This document shows, piece by piece, positions 5,268 through 43,463 of a stretch of 64,000 nt of DNA. The translations under genes and the position numbers were made by a program. Under the pieces are notes generated by a model. It was not told the origin of the DNA. It worked only from the letters and a program-made list of their open reading frames with translations, and made no database searches. Origin of the DNA: Clostridia bacterium. GTDB taxonomy: Bacteria > Bacillota > Clostridia > Christensenellales > CAG-138. Every line of letters begins with the position of its first letter. Position 1 is the first letter of the stretch. The stretch spans positions 16,640 to 80,639 of the forward strand of contig JAFSEB010000032.1 in assembly GCA_017435905.1 (NCBI GenBank), given 5' to 3'.

Positions 5268-6439
5268 GCGTTCACCTTATTCACAACGAGCTTGCCGCCC
5301 TTGAAGACCTTCTTGACGGATGCCATGGCACGGATATCCGCAAGGGGATCACCTTCCACGGCGATGAAGTCCGCCCACTTGCCGTTTTCGATGGTGCCGA
5401 CTTCGTCTTCCATCATGAGCAGCTTTGCGGCGTTGCCGGTGACGGCCTTGATGGCTTCCATATTGGTGGCGCCGAAGCGGACGGCACATTCCATTTCAAA
5501 GGCGATAAGGCCGTGCATGCTGTCGGTACCGAGACCGTAGTTCATGCCTGCCTTGAAGATCTTGCCGAAGGTCTCGGCGGTCTTTTCACGGCCCTTCAAA
5601 ACCTTCGCCTTGATGGCAGGGTTGGAGAAGTCGGTCTGCTCGATGCCGGTGGGATGGAAGGTGATGGAGAAGGTGCCGACCACCCACATATCCTTTTCCA
5701 CCGCCCGGGCGATCTGCTCATCGGTCATCAGGGCGCCGTGCTCGATGCTCCTGACGCCTTCTTCAATGCACATATCCACGCCGGGGCCGCCGTGGGCATG
5801 GGCCGCCACATAAGTGCGCATGCGGTTTGCTTCCTCCACCGCCGCACGGACTTCCTCACGGGAGAAGCCGCAGAAATCCACGGGCGGACGGGTGGAGCTC
5901 ATGCCGCCGGTCATGAACATTTTGACGAAATCCGTACCTGCGGCGAAGTTGCTGCGGATGTTCTTCCTGACCTCCACTTCCCCATCGGATGTGGTGATGC
6001 CGACGCCGTGGCCGTTGCTGGCAACGATGCCGTGACCGGAGATATTGAGACGGGGACCCACGATGAGACCCTCTTCGATGCCCCGGCGGATATCCACATC
6101 GATATGGTGCTCTTCGCCCATGATACGCATGGTGGTAACGCCGCTTTCAAGCTCTTTCTGAATGTTGGGCAGGCTGCGAAGCACGTTGCGGCCTGCAGGC
6201 AGACGCATCTGCGCCAGCTGATTGCCTTCGGCAGGGACGATGGAAAGGTGGGTATGGCAGTCGATGAGACCGGGCATGACGGTATACTCGGAAAGGTCGA
6301 TGACCTCTGCGCCGTCGGTGGAAAGCTCCTTGCCGACCGCCACGATCTTCTCATCCTCCACACGGAACATGCCGCCCAGGATGGGCTCGCTGCCTGTGCC
6401 GTCGATCAATGCTTTGGTTTTCACTACGTATGCGCTCAT
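5264..6439 (-). CDS. Metal-dependent amidohydrolase (imidazolonepropionase-like, COG1228-type)
   Basis: 391 aa with an HxH metal motif in PGLIDCHTHL. The overall pattern is that of the amidohydrolase superfamily. Confidence 0.85.
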   Translation of the reverse strand: MSAYVVKTKALIDGTGSEPILGGMFRVEDEKIVAVGKELSTDGAEVIDLSEYTVMPGLIDCHTHLSIVPAEGNQLAQMRLPAGRNVLRSLPNIQKELESGVTTMRIMGEEHHIDVDIRRGIEEGLIVGPRLNISGHGIVASNGHGVGITTSDGEVEVRKNIRSNFAAGTDFVKMFMTGGMSSTRPPVDFCGFSREEVRAAVEEANRMRTYVAAHAHGGPGVDMCIEEGVRSIEHGALMTDEQIARAVEKDMWVVGTFSITFHPTGIEQTDFSNPAIKAKVLKGREKTAETFGKIFKAGMNYGLGTDSMHGLIAFEMECAVRFGATNMEAIKAVTGNAAKLLMMEDEVGTIENGKWADFIAVEGDPLADIRAMASVKKVFKGGKLVVNKVNA

Positions 6440-6441
6440 AA

Positions 6442-7152
6442 TTATGCCTCGTTTTCCTTCGTTTCGGTGTTTTCGGTGGTGTTCTCCGCCGCCTGCTGCG
6501 GTGCGTTGTTGTGTTCGTTCAGGGTGTAGGACTCCCCGTGTGCAGGGGAATACATTTTCTTATCGATCTTGTTATTCTCCATGTTCTTATCCATGAAGGT
6601 GAGATCACGGAATTTGATATCGAGCATGTAGTTGCGGTTCTGGATCTCCGCATCGATCACACGGAAAAAGCGCTTGTCGCCCTTTTGGCACAGGCAGGCA
6701 TAGTGGGGCTTGTAGATCACGTACATCTCTTTGAAATCGATGGCGGGAATGGAGCGGTACATCTTCTGTCCCTGCTTTGCCATATGCCTTGCAATGCGGA
6801 TCTCCGCATCGGCCTGATCGAACCTGCAGACCACGATCTGGTCAAGGGGCACTTCCTCATAGCCCATGGCAGGGCGTCCCTTCATGTTCTGCACGGTGCC
6901 AAAGCCGCCTTCCATGGCAGCCACCGCCGCCGCATGGCGCTCGCTGATCCTGCCGCCCGCACGCTTGAACTTCATCACGGCGCCGCCGATGTAGTAGGGA
7001 TAATAAAACTTCTTGGCTTTAAGGACTTCCGTCTTTTTCTCCTTGTGTCCAAGCTTGTTGATCAGATCGCCGATAAGGCCGTTGTTGTCCTTGCCCGCAA
7101 GTTCAATGGCCTGTTCGATGGTCATACGGGTGGTGGTGGTACGAATAAGCAT
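6442..7152 (-). CDS. Hypothetical protein of 236 aa; no family recognised
   Basis: AAAGGAG RBS lies 9 nt upstream of the ATG. The stop sits 2 nt before the amidohydrolase start. The C-terminal tail is N/E/T-rich and low-complexity. Confidence 0.65.
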   Translation of the reverse strand: MLIRTTTTRMTIEQAIELAGKDNNGLIGDLINKLGHKEKKTEVLKAKKFYYPYYIGGAVMKFKRAGGRISERHAAAVAAMEGGFGTVQNMKGRPAMGYEEVPLDQIVVCRFDQADAEIRIARHMAKQGQKMYRSIPAIDFKEMYVIYKPHYACLCQKGDKRFFRVIDAEIQNRNYMLDIKFRDLTFMDKNMENNKIDKKMYSPAHGESYTLNEHNNAPQQAAENTTENTETKENEA

Positions 7153-7192
7153 ATTCTGCTCGCTCCTTTCCGGGGTGGATTCGGGTCATAAA

Positions 7193-7271
7193 CATGATAC
7201 CATCCGCATACAAAAGCGAATAATCCTTTGTAAACGGATGGTATCATGGGCGCAAAGGCGCCCATGATACC
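7193..7271 (-). other. Intergenic RNA element in which three copies of CATGATACC form two mutually exclusive 14-bp hairpins
   Basis: 7240-7253 pairs perfectly with 7258-7271 around a 4-nt loop. Alternatively, 7235-7248 pairs perfectly with 7193-7206. The two helices share 7240-7248. Confidence 0.6.
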
Positions 7272-7302
7272 GTTTTGAAGCACTTTAAGGTTGTTTTGAA
7301 TA

Positions 7303-8769
7303 TCAGTCTTCGTTGAAGAAGAGCTCGAGGGTCTTCTCGTCGTCCTTGGGGGTAGCCTTGGAAACAACGATGCAGACGATGAGGGATACGATCGCACCGA
7401 TAACGGCGGGCCAGATGCCGCCGATCCACTGGCTGAGGGAACCGTACAGCACATAACCGAGCACGTACCAAACGATGGACATCACGGTACCGCTGATCAT
7501 ACCGGCCATGCCGCCGGCCTTGGTTGCGCCGGGCCACCAGAGACCGAGGAGAAGCGGGAAGGTGAAGGTAGCAGCCATGACGCTGAAACCGGTGGTGAGG
7601 ATCCAGAGGATAGCATCCGGGGGATCCATGGCAATAAGGAAGCCGAGAACGGCGATCACAGCGATGGTGATACGGCCGATGTTCAGGGTGGACTTCGCAG
7701 TGGGATCCTTGCCGAAGCGCTTGACCGCGATGTCATTGACAACGAGGGAGCTGGTCATCAGGAGCACGGAGTCAACGGTGGACATCATGGCGCCGAGAGC
7801 GGCGGCGAGGATGACACCGCCGATGATCGGGGGCAGATATTCGCCGATCATCATGGGGAGAGTCATGTCGGTGGAAGCAACTTCCGGGATCATGGTGATG
7901 GAAGCGAAACCGAGGATGCTGACGCCGAGGAAGATGATGCTCTCGAAGATGATGGAGTAAACAAGAGCGTTCTTCATGGTCTTGTCGTCAGAAGTGGTCA
8001 GGAAGCGGGTAGTGGCCGCAGGCTGACCGCCGATCTGGAAGAAGCCCCATACGATGAAGCCGGAGATGACCCACATGAGCGGCTGGCCGCTGGTGAGGGA
8101 GGCGCCGGCGGGGTTGAGGGCTGTGAAGGACTCGTTCATCGCGGTGAAGCCGCCGCAGGCGTTAAGAGCGACGGGAACCATGATGAAGACACCAAGCATC
8201 ATGATGACACCCTGGATCAGGTCGGTCCAGGCAACGGCGAACATACCGCCGAGGATGGTGTAAACAAGCACGATGCCGCCGAAGAGCAGGATGGCGCTGA
8301 TGTAGGGGATGCCGAGAAGAACTTCAAAGGCACCGCCCGCAGCCTTCAGCTGACCGGCGATGGTGGGGATGGAGCAGATGAGCATGACGATGGTGGCGTA
8401 GAGGCCGGCGGTCTTGCCGTAACGGGCTTCAAACACGTCGCCGAGGGTCACGCTGGAAAGACGGGCGCCGATCTTGCGCATACGGTCGCCGAGGAGGATG
8501 TAGCAGAACCAGGGCGCTGCAGCGGAAGAAAGAGCACCGGGCACGAAGGGATAACCCACGGTACGGAGGGTACCGACGGTGCCAAGGTAGGTAGAACCGC
8601 TCATCTGGGTAGCAGAGAACGAGAAACCGATAACGGGTGCATTCAGCTGGTCACGGGCGATGAAGTAATCGCTCTCGCTCTTGACCCTACGGCCAACGAG
8701 CACGCCGATTGCCAGCATTGCAACGAAGTACACCGCAATCACGATAATATACGTTACAACAGAGGACAT
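7303..8769 (-). CDS. Sodium:solute symporter (SSS family) permease
   Basis: 488-aa polytopic protein. Its N-terminus (..GR..KS..DYF.A...L....G.S..A...S....LG..G) is typical of the SSF family. Confidence 0.88.
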   Translation of the reverse strand: MSSVVTYIIVIAVYFVAMLAIGVLVGRRVKSESDYFIARDQLNAPVIGFSFSATQMSGSTYLGTVGTLRTVGYPFVPGALSSAAAPWFCYILLGDRMRKIGARLSSVTLGDVFEARYGKTAGLYATIVMLICSIPTIAGQLKAAGGAFEVLLGIPYISAILLFGGIVLVYTILGGMFAVAWTDLIQGVIMMLGVFIMVPVALNACGGFTAMNESFTALNPAGASLTSGQPLMWVISGFIVWGFFQIGGQPAATTRFLTTSDDKTMKNALVYSIIFESIIFLGVSILGFASITMIPEVASTDMTLPMMIGEYLPPIIGGVILAAALGAMMSTVDSVLLMTSSLVVNDIAVKRFGKDPTAKSTLNIGRITIAVIAVLGFLIAMDPPDAILWILTTGFSVMAATFTFPLLLGLWWPGATKAGGMAGMISGTVMSIVWYVLGYVLYGSLSQWIGGIWPAVIGAIVSLIVCIVVSKATPKDDEKTLELFFNED

Positions 8770-8815
8770 TGATTTGAATTCCTTTCTTTAATTTGGCAAC
8801 ACTGTGCCGTTTTTC

Positions 8816-9010
8816 TTATTTGTTGGTCTTTGCGTAGTAAATGCTGGCCGCAATGATAAAGATGTAGCCGAGATAACCTACGATGAAGGTAGGCAGATCA
8901 AGGCCGAAGACGTTCTGGGGGAGACCCTTAATCATCATGAGGATGGAACCGACCACCGTGAACGCGATCATGAGGATCAATGATACCTTAGGCAGTTTGG
9001 GCGCTTTCAT
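8816..9010 (-). CDS. Small two-TM membrane protein, positioned like the accessory subunit seen upstream of some SSS permeases
   Basis: 64 aa with two hydrophobic helices. AAAGGAGAAAAAG RBS. It lies 46 nt upstream of the SSS gene. Confidence 0.6.
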   Translation of the reverse strand: MKAPKLPKVSLILMIAFTVVGSILMMIKGLPQNVFGLDLPTFIVGYLGYIFIIAASIYYAKTNK

Positions 9011-9045
9011 GACTTTTTCTCCTTTCTTTGCTTATTTTTATAAAT

Positions 9046-10269
9046 TTACCAGACTTCCTTCAGCAGACGGATGGTGTTGCCGCCCATGACCTTGGCGATA
9101 TCGGTCTCGCTGTAGCCGTGCTTCACCAGCCAGCGAACGATATTGTAAGAGGCCTCGGTCGGGTTTTCGATACCGCTGACGTACTCCACTTCGGGGAAAT
9201 CATGGGAACCGTCGTCCTTCTTCTTGCCGAAGGCCTGCTTGATGGACAGGTTGGCAGCGAAGACGTGATGCAGTTCAACATGGTCGCCGTAAAGGGTGTC
9301 CGGGCCAAAGGAAACGTGGTCAATTCCGACGAGATCCTTCACATACTCGAAGTGCTCCATGTAGGATTCGATGTTGTGAACGGGGTTCTTTTCGGTGATG
9401 GTGGTATGGGGAGCCGCTTCGATGGCAATGATGCCGCCCTTCTTGGCGCAGGCCTTCATGACTTCGTCGGGCTTCAGGCGCTTGCTGTTCCAGAGGGCAC
9501 GGGCGCCGGTATGGGTGCAGAAGACGGGCTTCTTGGAGCACTCAATGATATCCATGGTGGTCCTGTCGCCGACGTGAGCGGTGTCGATCGCCATGCCGAC
9601 CTTGTTCATGCGCTCCACGACCTGTGCGCCGAAGTAGGTGAGGCCGCCGTCGTTGGGCTCTTTGAGGCCGCTGCCGAGGCCGTTGGATTCGCTGTAGGTG
9701 ATACCCATGACACGGACGCCGAGACCGTAGAGGATGTCAACACGGTCCACTTCGTTTTCGAGCATTGCAGCACCTTCGATGACCGGTACCCAAGCGATCT
9801 TGCCTTCCTTCTTGGCACGGAAGATGTCATCCACCTTTTCGCACTTGATGAGGAAATCCTGATGAGCGATATCCGCAAGGCGCATACCAAGGTCATACAC
9901 AACATCGTTCCACTTCCAGCCATGCTTGGAGGTGATCACGCAGCAGCCGTCCATCATGTTGTCGAACACGCAGTCCCAGTTGGACTCGGCCAGCGCCTTG
10001 TAAGCGGTGAAGCTGCGGCCTTCACGGGCATACTCGAAGGTCTCGCTGATGTTCTTGGGGAAGCAGAAGGGGTGCTCATGCAGGGAGATCATGAGGTTGT
10101 CCTTCACGACCTTCTCATAGAAGGCTTCCTGCTCATCGGTCAGGGGAATAATATACTCTTCAAACTCGTTGCCTTCAGCGGCCAGTTCAAATACCTTGTA
10201 ATCATCGCCCGGGGTCAGGTAGTCATAGGACTTATAGCCTTTGTAGCCGGGTTTGAGCGTCTTTTTCAT
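9046..10269 (-). CDS. M19 (renal/membrane dipeptidase) family protein, paralog A
   Basis: 407 aa. IEGAA, THTGAR, EAAPH and GGNTIRLL segments are typical of peptidase M19. GGAGG RBS. Confidence 0.85.
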   Translation of the reverse strand: MKKTLKPGYKGYKSYDYLTPGDDYKVFELAAEGNEFEEYIIPLTDEQEAFYEKVVKDNLMISLHEHPFCFPKNISETFEYAREGRSFTAYKALAESNWDCVFDNMMDGCCVITSKHGWKWNDVVYDLGMRLADIAHQDFLIKCEKVDDIFRAKKEGKIAWVPVIEGAAMLENEVDRVDILYGLGVRVMGITYSESNGLGSGLKEPNDGGLTYFGAQVVERMNKVGMAIDTAHVGDRTTMDIIECSKKPVFCTHTGARALWNSKRLKPDEVMKACAKKGGIIAIEAAPHTTITEKNPVHNIESYMEHFEYVKDLVGIDHVSFGPDTLYGDHVELHHVFAANLSIKQAFGKKKDDGSHDFPEVEYVSGIENPTEASYNIVRWLVKHGYSETDIAKVMGGNTIRLLKEVW

Positions 10270-13572: not shown

Positions 13573-14499
13573 ATGAACATTCAGCAGCTGAAGCTTTTCA
13601 GCGATGTTGTGCAGTACGGTTCCGTCAACAAGGCGGCACAAGTGAATTACATCTCCCCCTCCACGCTGAGCCGCTCCATTCAGGAGCTGGAACGCAGCAC
13701 CAACACCGTGCTGTTCCAGCGCAGTTATTCCGGCATGAAACTGACGCAGCAGGGCGAAGAATTCTTTGTGGTGGTGCAGCCCATCCTTTACGACATTCAG
13801 CAGCTGGAGGATACTTACTTCAACGATGAGGGCAGCGACCTTCTGCGCCTGACGGTGTGCGTGCAGCAGAACAGCCTTGCCATGCAGTGCATCATTGAGT
13901 TCTACAACACTTACGCCGCCCGGAAGCAGCACATCGACATCGTGGTACCTGCCTACAGCTCCTTTAACGAGACTCTTGATGCGATGATCAAGAAGCATTT
14001 CATGCTGGGCGTGGTGCAGTACAACAGCATGGAGGAAGAGGATGTCATGGATATCTTCAACCGCAAGCGGCTGCAGGTGCTTTACCGTAAAAGCACGCCG
14101 GTGCATGTGGTGATCAATGCGGATCACCCTCTTGCATCCCACAGCTCCCTGACCCTTGAAGACCTTGATCCCTATCCCCGGCTATCCTATATAAATACCG
14201 CTGTACCGGATATCAACTACCATACGGATACCAACAACTATTCCTACATGAAGACCGCACGCCGCATCCTTATCAAGGAGCGTGCGCAGCTGACGGACCT
14301 TGTATCCTACACAGATGCCTACTTCCTCGGCACCAGCGCATCGCAGATCACCGCAGACAACAGCCGCATGCGCTACATCCCCCTTGAAGGGATGAACAAC
14401 GAGCCCGTCACGGTGCTGCTTGGCTACCAGAACCACGGTCTCAACCAGAACGCACAGCGCTTCCTTGATATTTTCAAGCGGGCTGCAGAAAGCATGTGA
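13573..14499 (+). CDS. LysR-family transcriptional regulator
   Basis: N-terminal wHTH (MNIQQLKLF..V...GS.NKAA....ISPSTLSR.I..LE) followed by a substrate-binding domain of about 200 aa. Confidence 0.92.
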   Translation: MNIQQLKLFSDVVQYGSVNKAAQVNYISPSTLSRSIQELERSTNTVLFQRSYSGMKLTQQGEEFFVVVQPILYDIQQLEDTYFNDEGSDLLRLTVCVQQNSLAMQCIIEFYNTYAARKQHIDIVVPAYSSFNETLDAMIKKHFMLGVVQYNSMEEEDVMDIFNRKRLQVLYRKSTPVHVVINADHPLASHSSLTLEDLDPYPRLSYINTAVPDINYHTDTNNYSYMKTARRILIKERAQLTDLVSYTDAYFLGTSASQITADNSRMRYIPLEGMNNEPVTVLLGYQNHGLNQNAQRFLDIFKRAAESM

Positions 14500-14511: not shown

Positions 14512-14551
14512 AAAAAAACGCTGCCGCAGTCATACTGCGGCAGCGTTTTTT
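14512..14551. terminator. Bidirectional Rho-independent terminator
   Basis: A7-CGCTGCCGCAGT..ACTGCGGCAGCG-T6. Confidence 0.8.
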
Positions 14552-14559
14552 ATCGGGCT

Positions 14560-15726
14560 TTAGCCCATCTTCTTTTTGATATCCGCAAGGCGGTTGAGCG
14601 CCTCGTAAAGGGTATCGTCCTTCTTGGCAAAATGCACACGGACGATGTCGTTCACATCCTCCATAAAGAAAGAGGTGCCGGGAACGCAGGCTACGCCCAC
14701 CTTCTGTGCCATCTCTTCGCAGAACTGCACATCCGTCTGGCCGGGCTTGAGGAACTTGCCGATGTTGGCCAGCACGAAGTATGCACCCTGAGGATCGGTA
14801 TATTCGATGCCGATATCGTCAAGACCCTTGGTGAACAGCTGCTTCATGTGAGCATAATGTGCGCCGAACTCCTCGTAGTAGCTGTCGGGCATCTCAAGAC
14901 CCACAACGGCAGCTTCCATCAGCACGGAGGGTGCACCGACGGTGTTGAAGTCGTGATACTGCTTGATCTTGTCCATGATGGGCTTGGGGGCGATGGCATA
15001 GCCAAGGCGCCAGCCGGTGATGGAATAGGTCTTGGAGAGGGAGCTGCAGGAGATGGTCCGCTCCCACATGCCGGGCAGGCTGTTCATGTAAATGTGCTTA
15101 TGGGGCGCATATACGATGTGCTCGTACACCTCATCCATGATGACATAGGTATCATAACGGATGGCGAGATCCGCAATGAACTTGAGTTCTGCCTCGGTGA
15201 ACACCTTGCCGCTAGGGTTGGAGGGGTTGCAGATCAGGATCGCCTTTGCACCCTGCTTGAATGCATCCTCCAAAACGGCAGGATCGAAGTTAAACGTGGG
15301 CGGCACCAGCGGCACGAAGATGGGTTCGCAGTCCGCAAAGATGGCCTGTGCACGGTAGTTCTCAAAATAGGGGGAGAACATGATGATCTTATCGCCGGGG
15401 TTCGTGAGGGCGAAGATGGTATCCACCATAGCCTCGGTGGAACCGATGGTGACCACGACCTCCGTGTTGGGATCGATTGTACGGCCCATGCAGCGGCCGC
15501 ACTTCTTTGCAAGGGCGGCACGGAAGTTGGGGGCACCCATGGTGATGGGATACTGGTGGGGGCCAAGGTGGCTGATCTCCTCAAGCCTGTCCATCATGGC
15601 CTTGGGCGGATCAAAATCCGGAAAACCCTGTGCCAGGTTAATAGCGCCGCAATCAATGGCGATGCGCGTCATCCTGCGGATGACGGAATCGGTAAAGTGC
15701 CTGCATTTTCTGCTCATTTCCTGCAT
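14560..15726 (-). CDS. Class I/II pyridoxal-phosphate aminotransferase
   Basis: 388 aa from the internal ATG (MQEMSRK..). Motifs NLAQGFPDF, NP.NP.GKVF and SLSKTYSITGWR(L)GY. The track's longer ORF overlaps the ACT gene and lacks an RBS. Confidence 0.9.
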   Translation of the reverse strand: MQEMSRKCRHFTDSVIRRMTRIAIDCGAINLAQGFPDFDPPKAMMDRLEEISHLGPHQYPITMGAPNFRAALAKKCGRCMGRTIDPNTEVVVTIGSTEAMVDTIFALTNPGDKIIMFSPYFENYRAQAIFADCEPIFVPLVPPTFNFDPAVLEDAFKQGAKAILICNPSNPSGKVFTEAELKFIADLAIRYDTYVIMDEVYEHIVYAPHKHIYMNSLPGMWERTISCSSLSKTYSITGWRLGYAIAPKPIMDKIKQYHDFNTVGAPSVLMEAAVVGLEMPDSYYEEFGAHYAHMKQLFTKGLDDIGIEYTDPQGAYFVLANIGKFLKPGQTDVQFCEEMAQKVGVACVPGTSFFMEDVNDIVRVHFAKKDDTLYEALNRLADIKKKMG

Positions 15727-15757
15727 AGTGTGATACCTCGTTTTGCTGAATCGGGTT

Positions 15758-16189
15758 TTATTTGATGCCAAGGTCCTCTGCTTCCGCAGTTTTAAGACCG
15801 TGAGAAGCAAGCAGTGACTTGAACTTTTCTTCTTCGCCGATGCGGAACACCATATAAGCTTTGCCGTCCACATGGGTGAAAAGGGAGTACATGTATTCGA
15901 TATCGATATTGCCTTCCGCAAGGGTGGCAAGCACGGGCGCAAGGCCGCCGGGCACATCCGGCACGGCAACGGCCACAACGGGTGTCATGGAAAGGATGTA
16001 TTCCTTTTCAAGCAGGATGTTGGTTGCACGGGCGGCATCATCCACGATCATGCGCAGCACGCCGTAATCCGCCGTTTCCGCAATGGAGATGGCACGAAGG
16101 TCGATGTTGTGTTCCGCAAGCACGCCGGTGATCTCCGCCAGCTGGCCGGCACGGTTTTCAAGAAAAACGGAAATCTGATGAACGCTCAT
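15758..16189 (-). CDS. ACT-domain protein
   Basis: 143 aa starting MSVHQISVFLENRAGQLAEIT, with two ACT-like repeats. GGAGG RBS. It occupies the classical position next to paaK. Confidence 0.85.
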   Translation of the reverse strand: MSVHQISVFLENRAGQLAEITGVLAEHNIDLRAISIAETADYGVLRMIVDDAARATNILLEKEYILSMTPVVAVAVPDVPGGLAPVLATLAEGNIDIEYMYSLFTHVDGKAYMVFRIGEEEKFKSLLASHGLKTAEAEDLGIK

Positions 16190-16200
16190 AGTCTGCCTCC

Positions 16201-17499
16201 TTAGATCTTGCGCTTATCGATAATGCGTACCGCCTTGCCTTCGCTTCTTGCGATGGTTTTGGGGGCAACGAGCTTGACCTTTGCGTAAATGCCAAGCATG
16301 GTCTTCAGGGCTGCAACAAGCTGTTTTTCCATCTCGGTGATCTTGCCGAGGGTATCGGAGAAGTTCTCCGGCGTCATTTCCACCATGACCTCGAGGGTAT
16401 CGGAATGGTTCACACGGTCCACGATGATCTGGTAGTTGGCAGGATAGCCCTGCTCAAGGAGCACCGTCTCGATCTGGGAGGGGAACACGTTCACGCCCTT
16501 GACGATGAGCATATCGTCGCTGCGGCCCATGGGCTTGGACATCTTCACATGGGTACGTCCGCAGGAACAGGGCTTACGGCTCAGCACGCAGATATCACGG
16601 GTGCGGTAGCGAAGCAGCGGAAATGCTTCCTTGGTGATGGCAGTGAACACAAGCTCGCCCTTTTCGCCTTCGGGCAGCACCTCACCGGTCTTGGGATCGA
16701 TGATCTCCGCAATGAAGTGATCTTCATTGATGTGCATGCCGGTCTGCTCTTCGCACTCGAAGCTGACGCCGGGGCCGGAGGTCTCGGTAAGGCCGTAAAT
16801 GTCGTAGGCCTTGATGTTGAGCTTCTGCTCGATATCACGGCGCATCTCTTCGCTCCATGCTTCTGCGCCGAAAATGCCGGCCTTGAGCTTGATCTGATCC
16901 TGCAGACTGCGCTCGTGGATGGATTCTGCCAGATAAGCCGCATAGGAAGGCGTGCAGCAGATGATGGTCGCACCAAGGTCGGTCATAAACTGCAGCTGGC
17001 GATCGGTATTGCCGGAGGACATGGGCAGCGTCAGGCAGCCCACCTTATGGCTGCCGCCGTTGAGGCCGGGGCCGCCGGTGAAAAGGCCGTAGCCGTAGGA
17101 AACCTGGCACACATCCTCGTTGGTGCCGCCTGCCGCCACGATAGCACGGGCACAGCAGTCTTCCCAAAGGTCCACATCGTGCTGGGTGTAAAACGCCACA
17201 ACACGCTTACCGGTGGTGCCGGAAGTGGACTGGATGCGCACGCACTCGGAAAGAAGCTTGCCGAGAAGGCCGTAGGGATACGCTTCACGAAGGTCATCCT
17301 TCGTCAGGAAGGGGAGCTTGTGCAGATCCGCAACGCCCTTGATATCATCGGGGGTAACGCCCTTCTCTTCCATCTTCTTGCGGTAATACGGCACGTTTTC
17401 CCAAACATGCTTTACCTGTTTGACCAGGCGCTCGTTCTGCCAGGCAAGGATCTGTTCCCTTGAAGCAGTTTCGATCTCCGGCTGGTAATATTTCGCCAT
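16201..17499 (-). CDS. paaK: Phenylacetate-CoA ligase family (arylacetate-CoA ligase)
   Basis: 432 aa. The N-terminus (..E...RE.....Q..RL...V..........YY..K........P.DI....DL..LPF..K.DLR) and STSGTTGK are typical of PaaK. Confidence 0.9.
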   Translation of the reverse strand: MAKYYQPEIETASREQILAWQNERLVKQVKHVWENVPYYRKKMEEKGVTPDDIKGVADLHKLPFLTKDDLREAYPYGLLGKLLSECVRIQSTSGTTGKRVVAFYTQHDVDLWEDCCARAIVAAGGTNEDVCQVSYGYGLFTGGPGLNGGSHKVGCLTLPMSSGNTDRQLQFMTDLGATIICCTPSYAAYLAESIHERSLQDQIKLKAGIFGAEAWSEEMRRDIEQKLNIKAYDIYGLTETSGPGVSFECEEQTGMHINEDHFIAEIIDPKTGEVLPEGEKGELVFTAITKEAFPLLRYRTRDICVLSRKPCSCGRTHVKMSKPMGRSDDMLIVKGVNVFPSQIETVLLEQGYPANYQIIVDRVNHSDTLEVMVEMTPENFSDTLGKITEMEKQLVAALKTMLGIYAKVKLVAPKTIARSEGKAVRIIDKRKI

Positions 17500-17528
17500 T
17501 GAGTCAATCTCCTTTGGAATTTTTTTGT

Positions 17529-18101
17529 TCAGGCTCCCCTGCCGAGGGCAAAGGCTTTCCTGTTCAGTTCAAGGAATTTTGCGGGGACGCTCTTTTCGAT
17601 GGCTTCCTGCCACTCCGCTTCGGTGAAGTCGAAATAGTTGGAAAGCCTGCCCATGAGGACAAGGTTCACCGCTTTTGCGCTGCCTGCCTCCTCCGCAAGA
17701 GAAAGGGCATCAAAGGCATCCACCTGAAGACCTGCGGCAGCCATCTTCTCCACGAGGTTTTCGGGATATTCCGCTGCGCCGGTAATGACGGGCATGGGGG
17801 CGATCTGCTGGGTGTTGGTCACAATGCGGCCGTCCGTTTTGAGGTATTCCGTCCACCTTGCCGCTTCAAGCAGCTCGAAGGAAACGATGAAATCCGCCTC
17901 GCCCTTATCGATGATGGGCGAATACACCTTTTCGCCGTAGCGGACATAGGTGACAACGCTGCCGCCACGCTGGCTCATGCCGTGCACTTCGGAAACCTTC
18001 ACGTCAAAGCCCTTATCAAGAAGGAGCCTGCCGAGAAGCTTGGAAGCAAGCAGGCTGCCCTGCCCGCCGACGCCGACGATCATAATGTTCCTGGTCTGCA
18101 T
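17529..18101 (-). CDS. iorB: Indolepyruvate:ferredoxin oxidoreductase, beta subunit
   Basis: 190 aa from MQTRNIMIVGVGGQG. GGAGG RBS. Its start lies 2 nt after the iorA stop. Confidence 0.9.
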   Translation of the reverse strand: MQTRNIMIVGVGGQGSLLASKLLGRLLLDKGFDVKVSEVHGMSQRGGSVVTYVRYGEKVYSPIIDKGEADFIVSFELLEAARWTEYLKTDGRIVTNTQQIAPMPVITGAAEYPENLVEKMAAAGLQVDAFDALSLAEEAGSAKAVNLVLMGRLSNYFDFTEAEWQEAIEKSVPAKFLELNRKAFALGRGA

Positions 18102-18103
18102 AC

Positions 18104-19840
18104 TTATGCCTCCTCTCCCGTAAGGGCACCGAATTTGCAAAGCTGCATGCACACACCGCAGCCCGTGCAAAGGGTGTTGTCAATGCGTGCCTTGCCATCC
18201 TTCATGCTGATGGCAGGGCAGCCGATCTTCATGCACGCCTTACAGCTGCGGCACTTGTCCGCATCCACCGTCAGGGGCTTTTTGTGCTTCACATACTTGA
18301 GCAGCGCACAGGGGCGGCGGGAGATGATCACGGAGGGTTCATCTGCCTGAAGTTCTTCCTTCAGCGCCGCATCGCAGGCTGCAAGATCGTAGGGATCCAC
18401 CACACGCACCCTGCGGATGCCGATGGCACGGCAAAGGGCTTCAAGGTCGATCTTCGTGGCAGGGTCGCCCTTCAGGTTCATGCCGGTGGTAGGGTTCTGC
18501 TGGTGACCGGTCATGCCGGTGATGGAGTTATCAAGGATGATCACGGTGGAATTGGATTCATTGTAAGCGGTGTTCACAAGGCCCGTCATGCCGGAATGCA
18601 TGAAGGTGGAATCGCCGATCACCGCCACCGTCTTTGCGCTGGTCTCTCCCCCGTTGGCTTTGTTGAAGCCGTGCAGGTTCGGGATGGAGGCACCCATGCA
18701 GATGGTGGTATCGATAGCCGCAAGGGGCGGTACGGCACCGAGGGTATAACATCCAATGTCGCCCATGACGGTCACTTTATTCTTCGCAAGGGTATAGAAC
18801 AGACCCCTGTGGGGGCAGCCTGCACACATGACCGGCGGACGGTTGGGGATCGCTTCCGCAAGCTTGATGCCGCCTTCCGCCTTTTTGCCCAGCTTTTCCG
18901 CCACGGTATTCTGGGACAGCTCATCGATCAGGGGGAACACATCCTTGCCCACGGGATCAAGACCGAGCTGACGGCAGTGGTTTTCAATGAAGCCTTCAAG
19001 CTCCTCCACCACCACGAGCTTCCTGACGGAAGCAGCGAAGTCACGGATCTTCTTTTCGGGCATAGGCCACGCCATACCGAGCTTGAGCACGGGATATTTG
19101 CTGCCGAATGCTTCCTTTACATACTGGTAGCAGGTGCTGGCGGTAATGATACCGATCTCATCGCACTCGCCATCTTCCACCCTGTTCAGGGGAGAGGTCT
19201 CCGCATATTCCGTAAGAGCAGCGGTGCGTGCTTCCACGATGGGGTGACGCTTCTTGGCGTTGCCCGGCATCATGATATATTTCTGGGGCGTTTTTTCGTA
19301 TGCTTTTGCATGCTCCGTGCGCTCGCCCGGCTCCACCACGCTCTGGGAATGGGAAACACGGGTGCACATCTTCAAAAAGACGGGCGTATCGAACTGCTCG
19401 GAGATCTCATAGGCCGCTTTGGCGAATGCAAGGGCTTCCGCACTGTCCGCAGGCTCCAGCATGGGCACTTTCGCCGCACGGGCATAGTGACGGGAATCCT
19501 GTTCATTCTGCGAGCTGTGCATGCCTGCATCATCCGCAACGCCGATGATCATGCCTGCATTGATGCCGGTGTAAGCAATGGTGAAAAGCGGGTCCGCCGC
19601 CACGTTGAGACCAACGTGCTTCATGCCGCAAAAGCTGCGCTTGCCCGCAAGGGCTGCGCCGAAAGCGGATTCCATGGCCACCTTCTCATTGGGCGCCCAC
19701 TCCGCATAGATTTCCTGATATGCTGCCGCCGCTTCCGTGATCTCCGTGCTGGGAGTTCCCGGATAGCTGGAGACGAAGGAGCAGCCGGCTTCATAAAGGC
19801 CGCGTGCAACGGCTTCGTTGCCAAGCATCAATCGTTTCAT
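18104..19840 (-). CDS. iorA: Indolepyruvate:ferredoxin oxidoreductase, alpha subunit
   Basis: 578 aa with a TPP-enzyme pattern (GDIGCYT, GDSTF.HSG) and a C-terminal 2x[4Fe-4S] ferredoxin motif (CxxCxxCxxxCP, CxGCGxC). Confidence 0.92.
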   Translation of the reverse strand: MKRLMLGNEAVARGLYEAGCSFVSSYPGTPSTEITEAAAAYQEIYAEWAPNEKVAMESAFGAALAGKRSFCGMKHVGLNVAADPLFTIAYTGINAGMIIGVADDAGMHSSQNEQDSRHYARAAKVPMLEPADSAEALAFAKAAYEISEQFDTPVFLKMCTRVSHSQSVVEPGERTEHAKAYEKTPQKYIMMPGNAKKRHPIVEARTAALTEYAETSPLNRVEDGECDEIGIITASTCYQYVKEAFGSKYPVLKLGMAWPMPEKKIRDFAASVRKLVVVEELEGFIENHCRQLGLDPVGKDVFPLIDELSQNTVAEKLGKKAEGGIKLAEAIPNRPPVMCAGCPHRGLFYTLAKNKVTVMGDIGCYTLGAVPPLAAIDTTICMGASIPNLHGFNKANGGETSAKTVAVIGDSTFMHSGMTGLVNTAYNESNSTVIILDNSITGMTGHQQNPTTGMNLKGDPATKIDLEALCRAIGIRRVRVVDPYDLAACDAALKEELQADEPSVIISRRPCALLKYVKHKKPLTVDADKCRSCKACMKIGCPAISMKDGKARIDNTLCTGCGVCMQLCKFGALTGEEA

Positions 19841-19917
19841 TTATACTATTCTCCCTAAAAAAATTACAACTATTATAGCGCGGTTTTGTACTTCGAACAA
19901 CCGCTATTTTCCGTTTT

Positions 19918-21471
19918 TTATTTCATTTCCTCCGCAGGGCCTATGGAATCCGTTACGGCAACGGTAACGGTGCGGTCATAGCAGGCAAAAACCTTTTCCA
20001 CGTGGGAAGCATCCGGTTTTTTCGTGAAAACGCTCACCGCAGGAACGATCACAAGGCTCATGAGCATCACGAAGGCACCGCAATTGATGGGCGACTGCAG
20101 GAGCGCCGGAAACATGGGCTTTGCAAGCATATTGAGAAGCATGGTACCAACACCAAAAACAAAGCTTGCCCAAACGGAAGCGGTGCTGACCTTCTTCATG
20201 TAAAGGCCCCACAGGTATGGCCCGAGGAAAGCGCCTGCCATCGCACCCCAGGAAAGACCCATCAGCTGTGCGATGAAGGCGATGTTGAAGCGGTACTGAA
20301 TGATCGCCAGCACGCCGGAAAGTACGATGAAGATCAAAAGGAACACACGGATATTCGTGACCTTGAATTTTTCATCCGCATTGCTCTTCCTGTGCGGAAC
20401 AAGAAGGTCAAGGGTCAGCGTTGAGCTGGCGGTCAGCACAAGGGAGGAAAGCGTGGACATGGAAGCGGAAAGCACCAGCACCACCACAAGGCCCATCAGC
20501 ATCACGGGGAAAGTCTCGAACATTTTGGGGATAATGGCATCGTACCCCTCCACCGCCACGTTCACCTTGTCGGAAAGAAGCCTGCCGAAGCCGCCGAGGA
20601 AGTAGCAGCCGCCTGCCACCACCAGCGCAAAGAGGGTGGAGATCACCGTGCCCTTCACGATGGCGGATTCGTTTTTGATGGCGTAGAATTTCTGCGTCAT
20701 CTGGGGAAGGCTCCAGGTGCCGAGGGAAGTGAGGATCACCACGCCGAGAAGGTTGATGGGATCCGGTCCGAAGAAGGATGTGAAGGCGCCCGGTGCGGTG
20801 GAAACGGAAGTATCCATCACCTCCGCAAGGGACTGCATCGCTGCACCGAGACCGCCGAACTGGTCAAGTGCCGCCGCAAGGATCGCCACGATACCAAAGA
20901 GCATGATGACACCCTGAATGAAATCGTTGATCACGGTGGCCATGTAGCCGCCCGCCACCACATAAATGGCGGTGAGCACCGTCATCAGAATGATGCAGAC
21001 CGTGTAATCGATGTGGAATGCCATCGCAAACAGACGGGAAAGGCCGTTGTACAGCGATGCCGCATAGGGGATCAGGAACAGGAAGACGATAAGCGCCGCA
21101 CCGGTCCTGAGCGCCGGGCTGTTGTAGCGTTTTTCAAAGAAATCCGGCATGGTGGAGCTGCCGAGGTGCTGCGTCATGACACGGGTACGGCGCCCGAGGA
21201 TGGTCCAGGCAAGGTAGGAGCCGATGATGGCATTGCCAAGGCCGATCCACGTGGAGGAAATGCCGTATTTCCAGCCAAACTGTCCGGAATAGCCCACAAG
21301 GATGACCGCCGAGAAATAAGATGTGCCGTAGGCGAAAGCCGAAAGCCACGGGCCGACAGAGCGTCCGCCCAGCACAAAACCGTCAACGCTGTTTGAATGC
21401 TTGCGGCAATAGATGCCGACACCGATCATCAATCCAAAGAACACAACAAGCATCAGAATTTTAATTCCCAT
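19918..21471 (-). CDS. Sodium:solute symporter (SSS family) permease, second copy in the window
   Basis: 517-aa polytopic protein with the ..LGGRS.G.W.S.F....S..SA....G..G pattern. Confidence 0.85.
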   Translation of the reverse strand: MGIKILMLVVFFGLMIGVGIYCRKHSNSVDGFVLGGRSVGPWLSAFAYGTSYFSAVILVGYSGQFGWKYGISSTWIGLGNAIIGSYLAWTILGRRTRVMTQHLGSSTMPDFFEKRYNSPALRTGAALIVFLFLIPYAASLYNGLSRLFAMAFHIDYTVCIILMTVLTAIYVVAGGYMATVINDFIQGVIMLFGIVAILAAALDQFGGLGAAMQSLAEVMDTSVSTAPGAFTSFFGPDPINLLGVVILTSLGTWSLPQMTQKFYAIKNESAIVKGTVISTLFALVVAGGCYFLGGFGRLLSDKVNVAVEGYDAIIPKMFETFPVMLMGLVVVLVLSASMSTLSSLVLTASSTLTLDLLVPHRKSNADEKFKVTNIRVFLLIFIVLSGVLAIIQYRFNIAFIAQLMGLSWGAMAGAFLGPYLWGLYMKKVSTASVWASFVFGVGTMLLNMLAKPMFPALLQSPINCGAFVMLMSLVIVPAVSVFTKKPDASHVEKVFACYDRTVTVAVTDSIGPAEEMK

Positions 21472-21547
21472 TTTCTTTCAAAGGCAGCGCTTATGCCGCC
21501 TTTGAGGCACCTCCTTTTCTGCTATATTCCTGTATTTCTTTACCGCA

Positions 21548-23188
21548 TCATGCGGTGGTCTGCGCTTCCACGAGCCTTGCGCTCGAATACCGCTCTCTGA
21601 GCACCGGCTTTTCGATCTTGCCGGTGGGATTGCGGGGAACATCCGCAAAGATGACCTTGCGGGGCCGCTTGTAACGGGGCAGTTCCTCACAGAAAGCGTT
21701 GATCTCTTCTTCCGTGCAGGTCATGCCATCTTTGATCTCGATGATCGCCGCTGCGATCTCGCCAAGGCGGGCATGGGGCAGGCCGATGACCGCCACATCC
21801 TTGATCTTGTCATACCGCCTGAGGAAATCCTCGATCTGCACGGGGTACAGGTTTTCACCGCCGGAGATGATGACATCCTTCTTGCGGTCCACAAGGTAAA
21901 TGAAGCCTTCCTCATCCCTGCGTGCCATATCGCCGGTGAAGAGCCAGCCATCCCTGAGCACCTCTGCAGTGGCTTCGGGATTCTTGTAGTAGCAAAGCAT
22001 TACGCCCGGGCCCTGCACGATGAGCTCGCCCACTTCCCCCTCGGGTACATCCACGCCGTGTTCATCCACGATGCGTGCCGCCCAGTTATAGCCGGGAATG
22101 CCGATGGCGCCCACCTTTTCAATGTTGCCCACGCCAAGGTGTACACAGCCGGGGCCGGTGGATTCGCTGAGACCGTAGTTGGTATCGTACTGATGGTGGG
22201 GGAAGATCTTCTTCCAGCGGTGGATGAGGCTTGGGGGCACGGGCTGTGCGCCGATGTGCATGAGCCGCCACTGATCGAGCAGGTAGTGTTCAAGGTTGAT
22301 CCTGCCGTCATCGATGGCATCGAGAAGATCCTGCGCCCAGGGCACCAGCAGCCACACGATGGTGCAGCGCTCCTCCGTTACCGCACGGCAGATCCATTCC
22401 GGCTTCACGCCGCGAAGGAGCACCGCCTTGCTGCCGGCAAAAAGGCTGCCGAACCAGTGCATTTTGGCACCGGTGTGGTAAAGGGGCGGAATGCAGAGGA
22501 ACACATCCTCCCTCGTCTGCCCGTGGTGGTTCTGTTCCGCCTCCGCCGCACTCATGATGGCACGGTGGTTATGAAGAATGGCCTTGGGGAAGCCGGTGGT
22601 GCCGCTTGAAAAATAGATGGCGGCATGGTCCTCCGGAAGAAGCGGCACGGGCGGCGCTTCAAAGGAGCAGAAGGCTGCCCTTTCCCAGCAGGGCTCAGAA
22701 AAATCGGGGGCATTATGTCCCACAAAGAAGAAGGTGTGCACCCGTTTGCGAAGTTCATCCACAATGGGGGTAAGGCGGCTGATGAAGGCATCGCCGAACA
22801 CCAGCACCTCCACATCCGCAAGGTCAAGGCAGTATGCGATCTCATCGCCGGAATAGCGGAAATTAAGGGGAACAGCGATGCAGCCCGCTTTCATGATGCC
22901 GAAATATACCGGCAGCCACTCGATGCAGTTCATCATCAGGATGCCGACCTTTGCACCCTTTTTGAGACCTCGGCTCAAAAGCAGGTTTCCAAAGCGGTTT
23001 GCCCGCTTATCAAACTCGCCCCAGGTAAGCTCACGGCGGTAGGGTGCATCCGGCGTGCTGCTTTCCACAAGGCTGAATTCACGCCATGTGACAGCCTTAT
23101 CCCTCTCTTCGGAGGGATTGAGTTCCACAAGGCTCACTTCGCTGCCGTAAAGGCGAGCATTTCGTTCCAACAATTCGGTAATGACCAT
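21548..23188 (-). CDS. AMP-forming acyl-CoA ligase (adenylate-forming enzyme superfamily)
   Basis: 546 aa with YFSSGTTGFPKA (A3 motif), GYGLSE-like YGLSES, TGD and the GKI.K C-terminal Lys. GGAGG RBS. Confidence 0.9.
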   Translation of the reverse strand: MVITELLERNARLYGSEVSLVELNPSEERDKAVTWREFSLVESSTPDAPYRRELTWGEFDKRANRFGNLLLSRGLKKGAKVGILMMNCIEWLPVYFGIMKAGCIAVPLNFRYSGDEIAYCLDLADVEVLVFGDAFISRLTPIVDELRKRVHTFFFVGHNAPDFSEPCWERAAFCSFEAPPVPLLPEDHAAIYFSSGTTGFPKAILHNHRAIMSAAEAEQNHHGQTREDVFLCIPPLYHTGAKMHWFGSLFAGSKAVLLRGVKPEWICRAVTEERCTIVWLLVPWAQDLLDAIDDGRINLEHYLLDQWRLMHIGAQPVPPSLIHRWKKIFPHHQYDTNYGLSESTGPGCVHLGVGNIEKVGAIGIPGYNWAARIVDEHGVDVPEGEVGELIVQGPGVMLCYYKNPEATAEVLRDGWLFTGDMARRDEEGFIYLVDRKKDVIISGGENLYPVQIEDFLRRYDKIKDVAVIGLPHARLGEIAAAIIEIKDGMTCTEEEINAFCEELPRYKRPRKVIFADVPRNPTGKIEKPVLRERYSSARLVEAQTTA

Positions 23189-23231
23189 ATATTGACCTCC
23201 ATGGCAGCTTTGGCTGCCTTATTGACTGAAT

Positions 23232-23494
23232 AAAAAACCCTCCGCACAAACGTGCAGAGGGCGAAAGACCGCGGTACCACCTCAGTTTTGCTGCAAATGC
23301 AGCCTCAACGGGATACAAGCATATCCCCTGCGCTGTAACGGGCGCAACCCGTCATTGCCTACTTTGCAGTACGTGTTCGGCAAGCCGCTCGGAAAGGTAT
23401 TCGGCGAAAGCTTCCCCGCTGCCTCGCACCGACCGGCAGCTCTCTTGCAGGAACATCCAACGCTTACTTGGTTTCTTCAACGCATTTTGGTGTT
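23232..23494 (-). promoter_or_regulatory. T-box riboswitch leader with candidate specifier UAC (Tyr)
   Basis: On the minus strand: AGUA..GAA S-turn halves; AGAGAG plus GGUGCGA distal loop; AGUAGG; T-box core GGUGGUACCGCGG (23269-23281); terminator CCCUCUGCA-N6-UGCGGAGGG-U6 (23232-23261). Confidence 0.85.
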
Positions 23495-23500
23495 TTGAGT

Positions 23501-23529
23501 AATGTACCAAGTTTTTTGGCAGATGTCAA
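23501..23529 (-). promoter_or_regulatory. Sigma-A-type promoter of the T-box leader
   Basis: On the minus strand: TTGACA (23524-23529), a 17-nt spacer, then TACATT (23501-23506). Confidence 0.65.
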
Positions 23530-36880: not shown

Positions 36881-37137
36881 AAAAAAGAGCACATCATCCT
36901 CAAAGGACGAAATGCTCGCGGTACCACCTTTGTTGAGAAAAGCGGATGCTTTTCCCCACCTCAAGCGCCTTAACGCAGCGCATACGTTTCCGCTTACCAC
37001 CCCGAAAAGGGCTTCTGCGAAAATGCTCCGAAGCGACCTTCCGCAGCCTTCCGCCAGGCGCCCTTGCAGCCGATGGGGCACCCTCTCTGTTGCGGAGGAG
37101 ATGCGTACTCCTCTTCTTCAACGCAGATTTCCAGTTA
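36881..37137 (-). promoter_or_regulatory. T-box riboswitch leader of valS with specifier GUC (Val)
   Basis: On the minus strand: GCGUUGAAGAAGAGGAGUA start; AGAGAGGG..GGCUGCAAG distal region; GAA-G-GUC-G specifier loop (GUC at 37035-37037); T-box core GGUGGUACCGCG; terminator GAGCA..UGCUC-U6. Confidence 0.9.
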
Positions 37138-40047: not shown

Positions 40048-40124
40048 TGGTGGGGATGGAGGGGCTCGAACCCCCGACCTCTTCGATGTGAGCGAAGCGC
40101 TCTAACCAGCTGGGCTACATCCCC
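40048..40124 (-). tRNA. tRNA-Val (anticodon CAC)
   Basis: The minus strand reads GGGGATG-TA-GCCC..GAGC-G-CTTCG-CTCACAT-CGAAG-AGGTC-GGGGG-TTCGAGC-CCCTC-CATCCCC-A-CCA, a 77-nt cloverleaf with all four stems pairing. Confidence 0.92.
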
Positions 40125-40179
40125 GTAGCGACGAGAAGTATTATACTACACCCCGCCGGAATTTGCAATATGGAATTTT

Positions 40180-41031: not shown

Positions 41032-41207
41032 ATATAAAACCTCGCGGATGAAAAAACAAATAATGGAAGCGGTTCTGCCAAACGCACAAAACCGACAGAT
41101 TTCTCTACTGATATTTATAATGCTATCCGTTTCCGTTCCGATAGTCAAGGGCGTTTTCGGCTGTTTACAAATAATTCTTCAGCCCTGTTTCAGAGATTCC
41201 GTTCGCC

Positions 41208-41236
41208 TTGCAATGCGCCGCCTTTTCCCCTATAAT
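41208..41236 (+). promoter_or_regulatory. Sigma-A-type promoter of queA-tgt
   Basis: TTGCAA (41208-41213), a 17-nt spacer, then TATAAT (41231-41236). Confidence 0.6.
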
Positions 41237-41305
41237 ATGGTTGAGATATTGTGGGGATTTATGCGCAGGATGACCGCCATGACCTTCCCCGAAAAGGAGC
41301 ATCCT

Positions 41306-43463
<2,158 letters not shown>

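Follow-up and report, generated by a model that had tools for sequence, protein, structure and literature searches.

A T-box leader specific for tRNA-Tyr precedes a putative arylacetate-salvage operon in the genome of an uncultured gut Clostridia bacterium

That T-boxes control genes of biosynthesis and transport is textbook knowledge, and the reductive carboxylation of arylacetates is known physiology. In gut anaerobes, clusters that hold indolepyruvate:ferredoxin oxidoreductase (IOR) and paaK are commonly interpreted as sources of phenylacetate, indoleacetate and 4-hydroxyphenylacetate, arylacetates being precursors of the host-relevant compounds phenylacetylglutamine and p-cresol. IOR-dependent synthesis of aromatic amino acids from aryl acids is recorded for Methanococcus maripaludis (Porat et al., as cited in PMC4162585), and the conversion of phenylacetate to phenylalanine for rumen anaerobes (Allison 1965, as cited in PMC7356843). 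According to a 2026 study of tyrosine fermentation (PMC13285125), catabolic arylpyruvate oxidoreductase clusters pair with Pta and Ack or with ADP-forming ligases; the same study voiced for Bacteroides the idea that IOR combined with an AMP-forming arylacetate-coenzyme A (CoA) ligase may be biosynthetic. Here we describe a T-box leader RNA that stands ahead of seven genes, among them iorA, iorB and a paaK-like ligase gene, in a 64,000-nucleotide (nt) stretch of DNA (hereafter the window) from a Clostridia bacterium (GenBank assembly GCA_017435905.1, contig JAFSEB010000032.1, forward-strand positions 16,640 to 80,639). We think it likely that this tRNA-Tyr T-box decides whether RNA polymerase enters an operon for arylacetate salvage, with a probable internal promoter adding a basal level of expression.

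An Rfam scan of the whole window returned three matches at gathering level, namely two T-boxes and one tRNA. The match ahead of the seven genes (RF00230, 23254-23489 on the minus strand) scored 110.2 bits (E 1.8e-23), the gathering score being 93, and covers model positions 1-219, that is, the full model. Aligned to the model consensus, Stem I displays the K-turn UGAAG/GAGC, the specifier loop CAAGUA...GAA-UAC-C, the AGAGA bulge and the GGUGCGA distal loop, and the elements succeed one another as in the model: Stem I, Stem II with its own S-turn, the IIA/B hairpin, Stem III and the T-box sequence GAGGUGGUACCGCGG (23283-23269). The UGGU bulge inside this sequence, at 23279-23276, would pair with the NCCA 3' end of the tRNA; bacterial tRNA-Tyr has A73, so the UGGU discriminator matches. 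The specifier is the tyrosine codon UAC, and the base 3' of it is C rather than the usual purine. Bases 23262-23257 are common to the 3' strand of the antiterminator (23264-23257) and the 5' arm of the leader terminator, and the leader is predicted to be a classical two-state transcription attenuator that carries all of the parts that tRNA-Tyr-dependent antitermination requires. Within RF00230 it is an ordinary member. A tRNA-Tyr gene was not found in the window. An earlier sequence-only reading of this stretch had described a T-box at 23232-23494 with every hallmark in order, behind a TTGACA-17-TACATT promoter and with a probable specificity for tRNA-Tyr; the covariance-model scan agrees with the first of these claims, the promoter was found at 23529-23501, and the specificity is upheld by the Rfam alignment and by consistency among relatives. 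The terminator hairpin of the leader is also present in its minimum-free-energy fold.

Conservation was assessed on 80 genome loci around relatives of IorA (72-82% identity, mostly metagenome-assembled genomes (MAGs) of Oscillospiraceae, Acutalibacteraceae and Lachnospiraceae) and on another 80, from metagenomes, around relatives of the cluster's first ligase, with T-box frequency counted on the 114 ligase-orthologue loci that have at least 330 nt of upstream sequence. A T-box lies within 200 nt upstream of the ligase start in 42 of these 114 loci, and iorA follows downstream on the same strand in 31 of the 42; among the loci tested, 18 T-boxes reach the Rfam gathering score. The pairing is conserved across many Oscillospiraceae-type gut genomes, the nearest named relatives by IorA being MAGs of Avoscillospira, Pseudoflavonifractor and Faecousia at about 80% identity. 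All loci found with the T-box arrangement belong to MAGs related to Pseudoflavonifractor, Lawsonibacter and Faecousia. When leaders with at least 90% identity were collapsed, 37 lineages differing by at least 10% were retained, in which the T-box is of the tyrosine type before the ligase (28 lineages), of the phenylalanine type before the ligase (four) or of the phenylalanine type before iorA (five). At the specifier position the aligned leaders of relatives have UAC or UUC only, and specificity flips between the two by a single base, as in the leaders of loci L005 and L017, which are 87.5% identical and carry UUC and UAC, respectively. The commonest gene order is ligase-(sss)-iorA-iorB-paaK-ACT-aminotransferase, where the permease gene sss is present or absent between otherwise collinear operons (L002, L004, L013 and others). 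Joints that skip sss are also the only clear signal in the RNA-type sequencing runs aligned to the region: contigs of runs X25 and X27 join the ligase straight to iorA, omitting about 1,770 nt (window 19828-21606), and these joints come from relatives without the permease.

In the relatives that have no T-box, no Rfam family was found upstream of the ligase, and the idea that another riboswitch replaces the T-box there was rejected on that ground. Several such loci (L004, at about 8190-8290; L033, at about 5090-5180; L002; L009) keep the same promoter upstream of the ligase. The short leader that comes after it closes with a terminator-like hairpin, similar to the 3' half of the terminator of the T-box (GTCCTCTGC...GCAGAGG followed by a T run). 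These short leaders look as if the sensing domain had been deleted.

Comparison of the relatives further suggests that the system is modular. Two loci, L016 and L018, contain two complete units, promoter-T-box(Tyr)-ligase(-sss) and then promoter-T-box(Phe)-iorAB-paaK-ACT-aminotransferase; the first-unit leader of L016 scores 77 bits, under the Rfam cutoff, yet all motifs are present. The tandem modules (5918-6172 and 9669-9932 in L016, 7620-7884 and 9643-9906 in L018) have near-identical promoters (TTGACTTTAGC..AAAAGTGGTAGAGT), and their Tyr copies have CAA in place of GAA before the codon. At three other loci (L050, 5041-5308; L057, 9266-9536; L078, 9261-9536) the order is T-box(Phe, UUC-A), a gene of about 100 amino acids (aa) of the Trp-repressor family (PF01371, 71 bits) and iorAB, an arrangement in which a tRNA-sensing switch would control a TrpR-like regulator beside IOR. 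A T-box(Tyr) stands ahead of the ligase alone at five loci (L111, L113, L123, L130, L140), and on the metagenome contigs with the ligase alone unrelated genes follow, such as folP and cdaA. Taken together, these arrangements point to the FadD-like ligase, with the permease where present, as the part most consistently tied to tRNA-Tyr, and to an iorAB-paaK core that is variously fused to the ligase unit, equipped with its own promoter or equipped with its own Phe T-box. The cluster also adjoins T-box(Tyr)-tyrS in L043 (14280-14593) and L092 (17976-18257), and T-box(Trp, UGG)-trpE-trpG in L069 (14065-14221). At a single locus, L011, a T-box (6938-7174) with a specifier aligned as AUC (Ile) stands ahead of a 755-aa open reading frame (ORF; 7217-9484), by eye an apparent fusion of a helix-turn-helix domain, a cupin-like region and an acyl-CoA synthetase, which lies 78 nt upstream of iorA-iorB-paaK-ACT; this hints that tRNA-gated acid activation beside IOR may extend past the aromatic amino acids.

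In the window, seven minus-strand genes lie 3' of the leader (Table 1), separated by gaps of 76, 77, 2, 29, 11 and 31 nt. Pfam and NCBIfam agree with the gene content given in the sequence-only reading (acyl-CoA ligase, SSS permease, iorA, iorB, paaK, ACT protein, aminotransferase), in which two start codons had to be corrected, to 18101 for iorB, where the ATG lies 2 nt past the iorA stop, and to 15726 for the aminotransferase. IorAB is assigned as indolepyruvate:ferredoxin oxidoreductase from its sequence, both subunits being above their equivalog cutoffs, with the expected fused thiamine pyrophosphate (TPP)/ferredoxin layout and with POR_N, TPP_enzyme_C, Fer4 and POR domains. The closest solved structures to the first ligase, acs, are FadD13, FadD5 and feruloyl-CoA synthetase, with 4-coumarate-CoA ligases also among the nearest; we propose that it is an arylacetate (4-hydroxyphenylacetate)-CoA ligase on account of the Tyr T-box and its adjacency to iorA. 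The sodium:solute symporter (SSS) family permease, for which we propose the role of arylacetate importer, is nearer to PutP and PanF than to ActP. The ACT gene comes after paaK in nearly all relatives, and its product is probably a small-molecule (amino-acid) sensor. The top solved match of the aminotransferase is Rv0858c, annotated as an N-succinyldiaminopimelate aminotransferase, and kynurenine aminotransferases, YbdL and the Pyrococcus horikoshii aromatic aminotransferase 1DJU are also matched.

Table 1. Window coordinates of the leader, its regulatory parts and the downstream genes
Feature	Coordinates	Strand	Basis
Sigma-70-type promoter: TTGACA (23529-23524), 17-nt spacer, TACATT (23506-23501), TG extension	23501..23529	-	10/12 positions match
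T-box leader RNA, including its own terminator and U tract	23232..23494	-	Rfam RF00230 match and fold
Specifier codon UAC (Tyr), in GAA-UAC-C of the Stem I specifier loop	23397..23399	-	Rfam alignment; orthologous leaders UAC or UUC at the aligned position
Conserved T-box sequence CAAAACUGAGGUGGUACCGCGG	23269..23290	-	Rfam alignment and sequence
Leader intrinsic terminator: 11-bp stem (23262-23237), GUUU loop, U6	23231..23262	-	Terminator search and minimum-free-energy fold
acs, FadD-like AMP-forming acyl-CoA ligase, 546 aa	21548..23188	-	Pfam AMP-binding and AMP-binding_C
Stable 11-bp hairpin in the acs-sss gap, no U tract	21478..21505	-	z = -3.4; sequence not kept among relatives
sss, sodium:solute symporter family permease, 517 aa (511 aa from next ATG)	19918..21471	-	Pfam SSF, 183 bits
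Promoter-like site TTGTTC-17-TATAAT in the 77-nt sss-iorA gap	19872..19900	-	Pattern search
iorA, indolepyruvate (arylpyruvate):ferredoxin oxidoreductase alpha subunit, 578 aa	18104..19840	-	TIGR03336, 707 bits vs cutoff 651; POR_N, TPP_enzyme_C, Fer4
iorB, IOR beta subunit, 190 aa	17529..18101	-	NF005325, 278 bits vs cutoff 230; start analysis
PaaK-like AMP-forming phenylacetate/arylacetate-CoA ligase, 432 aa	16201..17499	-	Nearest solved: phenylacetate-CoA ligases 2Y27, 2Y4O, 4R1L, E about 1e-119
ACT-domain-pair protein, 143 aa	15758..16189	-	Pfam ACT_8, 89 bits; nearest solved structure 2F06
Class-I pyridoxal-phosphate aminotransferase, 388 aa, ATG at 15726	14560..15726	-	Pfam Aminotran_1_2
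Strong end terminator, 18-bp stem flanked by an A run and, opposite, a T run	14513..14551	-	Terminator search; fold z = -6.5

On the minus strand from 23237 to 14551, no U-tract terminator-like site was found inside any intergenic gap. The hairpin in the acs-sss gap was considered as a terminator and rejected, since no U tract follows and relatives do not conserve it. The terminator that closes the cluster is likely bidirectional and common to the convergent LysR-family gene at 13573-14499. The sequence-only reading had placed the first strong terminator downstream of the leader at 14512-14551, had described all intervening gaps as 77 nt or less without an obvious terminator, and had deduced a regulated unit of seven genes. 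The terminator and the gaps (2-77 nt) are as it described; all seven genes share a strand with no intergenic terminator found between them, and the seven-gene unit is qualified by the promoter-like site before iorA.

We infer that the operon would work as follows. When tyrosine runs short, uncharged tRNA-Tyr (anticodon GUA) would pair with the UAC specifier in Stem I, and its free 3' end on the UGGU bulge would stabilise the antiterminator, so that the terminator at 23262-23237 is blocked. Transcription would then enter the genes for the FadD-like ligase and the SSS permease and, with no intervening terminator, continue through iorA, iorB, paaK, ACT and the aminotransferase to 14551-14513, while a probable promoter before iorA would provide a T-box-independent basal level for the last five genes. 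The permease would bring in 4-hydroxyphenylacetate and/or phenylacetate, and the two AMP-forming ligases would form the CoA thioesters; our guess is that the FadD-like enzyme serves the tyrosine branch (4-hydroxyphenylacetate) and PaaK the phenylalanine branch (phenylacetate), because of the T-box that each follows in the two-unit genomes. IorAB, with reduced ferredoxin and CO2, would carboxylate the thioesters to arylpyruvates, from which the aminotransferase would yield tyrosine and phenylalanine, and the ACT protein would sense an amino acid.

Several observations weigh against this tRNA-Tyr-gated salvage operon. The T-box is absent in 72 of the 114 orthologous loci, so that the control is lineage-variable, and the Tyr unit of the two-unit loci L016 and L018 has no IOR of its own, with the consequence that tyrosine salvage there would need the Phe-gated unit to be expressed. 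The family assignments are broad: acs is a generic AMP-binding member whose NCBIfam matches all fall under their equivalog cutoffs, the permease falls under every NCBIfam equivalog cutoff (PutP, PanF, ActP), and the second ligase scores 498 bits against TIGR02155 and does not reach the equivalog cutoff of 646. Because of that score, and although solved PaaK structures are the closest, we class the second ligase as a PaaK-like arylacetate-CoA ligase and not as the PaaK equivalog of the aerobic pathway. Related sequence turned up in gut metagenomes and three RNA-type runs only; contigs of these runs, aligned to the region, gave patchy coverage from mixed relatives and are uninformative on operon structure. 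Finally, because the acs-sss gap holds a stable hairpin and the sss-iorA gap a promoter-like site, coupling of the last five genes to the T-box may be no more than weak.

This last point bears on how far the control reaches. The Tyr T-box might effectively regulate the ligase and permease only, leaving iorAB-paaK-ACT-aminotransferase essentially constitutive from the promoter in the sss-iorA gap, which is possible in our judgment, if somewhat doubtful, and is compatible with salvage. The site in that gap is a credible internal promoter by its sequence: the window contains five copies of TTG-N20-TATAAT where shuffled sequence predicts 0.21, of the other four sites two lie directly 5' of a gene (the ORF at 28913 and a tRNA-Val gene), and a clear TTGACG-17-TACAAT promoter occupies the same place between ligase and iorA in L094, L099 and L101. 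Detachment of the ligase unit is also suggested by the full second promoter and T-box before iorA in the two-unit loci, by the genomes in which the T-box precedes the ligase alone and by the gain or loss of sss between relatives. Against this, the -35 element of the window site matches at 3 of 6 positions only, the gap before iorA is at most 20 nt in the T-box-bearing relatives L005, L006, L013, L017, L022 and L024, which leaves no room for a promoter, and without a terminator between sss and iorA in the window, readthrough must add to whatever the internal promoter delivers. The T-box is in any case expected to gate the ligase and permease. Because of the internal promoter-like site and the modular relatives, the last five genes are probably not exclusively under its control; the T-box probably boosts them rather than being their sole control, and the window operon is likely a fused form with a residual internal promoter. 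It has also to be considered that the specifier was read in the wrong frame and that the leader responds to a different tRNA, for Ile (AUA) or Thr (ACC), the C after the codon making neighbouring frames formally possible. This is hardly credible: the Rfam alignment puts UAC at the specifier columns, the canonical purine does follow UAC or UUC in L049 and the L050 group, and across relatives the -1 frame gives a mixture of AUA, AUU, UUU and UUA and the +1 frame of ACC and UCC. Since only the canonical frame is coherent across relatives, we regard the tyrosine assignment as settled, and an isoleucine or threonine specifier was rejected on this consistency.

With the tRNA-Tyr switch taken as read, the direction and substrates of the pathway have to be weighed. 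The cluster could run fermentatively, from amino acid through arylpyruvate and arylacetyl-CoA to arylacetate, with the T-box incidental or serving another purpose; IOR is reversible and has been tied to phenylacetate production in Bacteroides (as cited in PMC13285125), and contigs of a gut metatranscriptome run cover homologues of the operon genes. We nevertheless consider fermentation very improbable and the proposed salvage (biosynthetic) direction well supported by logic and context, because a switch that fires on uncharged tRNA-Tyr or tRNA-Phe would be perverse before a pathway that destroys the scarce amino acid, because both ligases are AMP-forming and no Pta/Ack pair or ADP-forming ligase of the kind that catabolic clusters have was found near the cluster in the window, and because the chemistry has precedent in M. 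maripaludis and rumen anaerobes. Specifiers confined to Tyr and Phe over 37 lineages also speak against an incidental T-box. The salvage argument is strengthened by the co-located ACT and aminotransferase genes and by the relatives that tie the cluster to a TrpR-family gene, tyrS and trpEG. Genes of aromatic biosynthesis were looked for in the window, and none was found there. A further reading keeps the T-box logic and changes the substrates, such that the permease imports tyrosine itself or the ligase activates 4-hydroxyphenyl-propionate, 4-hydroxyphenyl-lactate or a coumarate-type acid. Transporters of the cognate amino acid are commonly under T-boxes (PMC2494555), and both the feruloyl- and 4-coumarate-CoA ligases near acs and the PutP- and PanF-like character of the permease would fit. 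We judge it unlikely, since the ligase gene is usually directly upstream of iorA, often translationally close, and IOR uses arylacetyl-CoA, and since the permease is optional in the operon and the ligase is not.

Elsewhere in the window, the second T-box (36900-37130, minus strand, 109.6 bits) has the specifier GUC (Val) by the Rfam alignment and precedes a gene for a 903-aa valyl-tRNA synthetase (34114-36825, minus strand); this canonical valS leader indicates that T-boxes behave conventionally in the source genome. A tRNA-Val(CAC) gene (40048-40124, minus strand) lies 3 kb upstream of the valS T-box and has its own TTGCAA-17-TATAAT promoter at 40140-40168. A second SSS-family permease gene (7303-8769) heads a minus-strand gene run at 4047-8769 that also contains an amidohydrolase (5264-6439) and an M20 peptidase (4047-5267); the run may be an uptake and hydrolysis unit for an N-acyl or peptide-like compound and seems unrelated to the T-box operon. 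A plus-strand ORF at 40619-42328, followed by tgt and tsaE, has a QueA domain (PF02547) at residues 232-568 preceded by about 230 N-terminal residues without a family match, which would reflect either a mis-called start or an unusual N-terminal extension. A giant minus-strand ORF (48031-63972), open at the end of the window, encodes more than 5,313 aa, among which Ala, Gly, Val, Thr, Ser and Asp are abundant, and ends in a hydrophobic segment and RRRRK; no Pfam match was found in its first or last 1,500 residues, and the product has the look of a very large cell-surface protein without an assigned family.

The sequence-only reading had called a T-box in front of iorAB-paaK a non-textbook arrangement, and we found no paper that describes one. 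In the searchable literature we found no T-box described before iorAB, paaK or the FadD-like ligase of the cluster; IOR and arylacetate ligases go unmentioned in both the T-box survey PMC2494555 and the TBDB paper. Nor did we come upon an account of specifiers limited to Tyr and Phe, of two T-boxes in one cluster or of the link to TrpR. The switch itself is ordinary, and the regulon apparently has not been described before. Going further, with a confidence evenly poised between belief and doubt, we suggest that the window operon belongs to a family of tRNA-gated "reverse Stickland" salvage operons in gut and rumen Oscillospiraceae-type Clostridia, which would turn 4-hydroxyphenylacetate and phenylacetate, both plentiful as end products of fermentation, into tyrosine and phenylalanine through a hitherto unassigned FadD-like ligase for the Tyr branch, in most cases behind a Tyr T-box, PaaK for the Phe branch and IorAB as the shared carboxylase, with a specifier base flip retuning the trigger.

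A conserved starvation switch with Tyr and Phe specifiers only offers an independent, sequence-level argument that in this lineage the cluster consumes arylacetates. If that is true, microbiome metabolic models would rescore these genes from source to sink, and arylacetate cross-feeding would be indicated. A FadD-like ligase and an SSS permease, widespread and unannotated, would also gain a likely function, and the T-box specifier would be a simple genomic marker for the direction and branch of the pathway. Recurrence of the pairing in many gut bacteria suggests that fermentation waste is recycled there to tyrosine and phenylalanine.

Among known systems, the leader resembles other RF00230 leaders such as that of Bacillus subtilis tyrS in its UAC specifier, UGGU bulge, mutually exclusive antiterminator and terminator and control by transcription attenuation, and differs from the tyrS leader in that the genes it controls include no aminoacyl-tRNA synthetase and in that C rather than a purine follows the specifier. 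As in the T-box-controlled biosynthesis and transporter operons (the trp operon, aro genes and amino-acid permeases; PMC2494555), uncharged tRNA would turn on the supply of the cognate amino acid, whereas the supply route in the window would be the reductive carboxylation of arylacetates instead of the shikimate/prephenate route or direct amino-acid uptake. The proposed sequence of activation, carboxylation by IOR and transamination is that of the aryl-acid pathway of M. maripaludis (IOR MMP0713/0714; cited in PMC4162585) and of the rumen conversion of phenylacetate to phenylalanine; for M. maripaludis, an archaeon, and for isolates that are undefined or from the rumen, the demonstrations are physiological or genetic, whereas the window adds genomic and regulatory evidence from uncultured gut Clostridia, with tRNA-based control. 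The catabolic clusters of Clostridium scatologenes (HpdDEFG-HpdJ-HpdK) and Clostridioides difficile (IOR and acyl kinase) have in common with the window the reversible 2-oxoacid:ferredoxin oxidoreductase chemistry on arylpyruvates, but they gain ATP through a phosphate acyltransferase and kinase or through an ADP-forming ligase, and they are induced by tyrosine, whereas the window has AMP-forming ligases and a switch induced by starvation. To our knowledge, Bacteroidota are without T-boxes. With the Bacteroides cluster of IOR and an AMP-forming ligase (Bacteroides thetaiotaomicron PaaK structure 4R1L, ACT protein 2F06; PMC13285125), the window shares an iorAB-paaK-ACT core, to which it adds a FadD-like ligase, a permease, an aminotransferase and a tRNA-Tyr switch.

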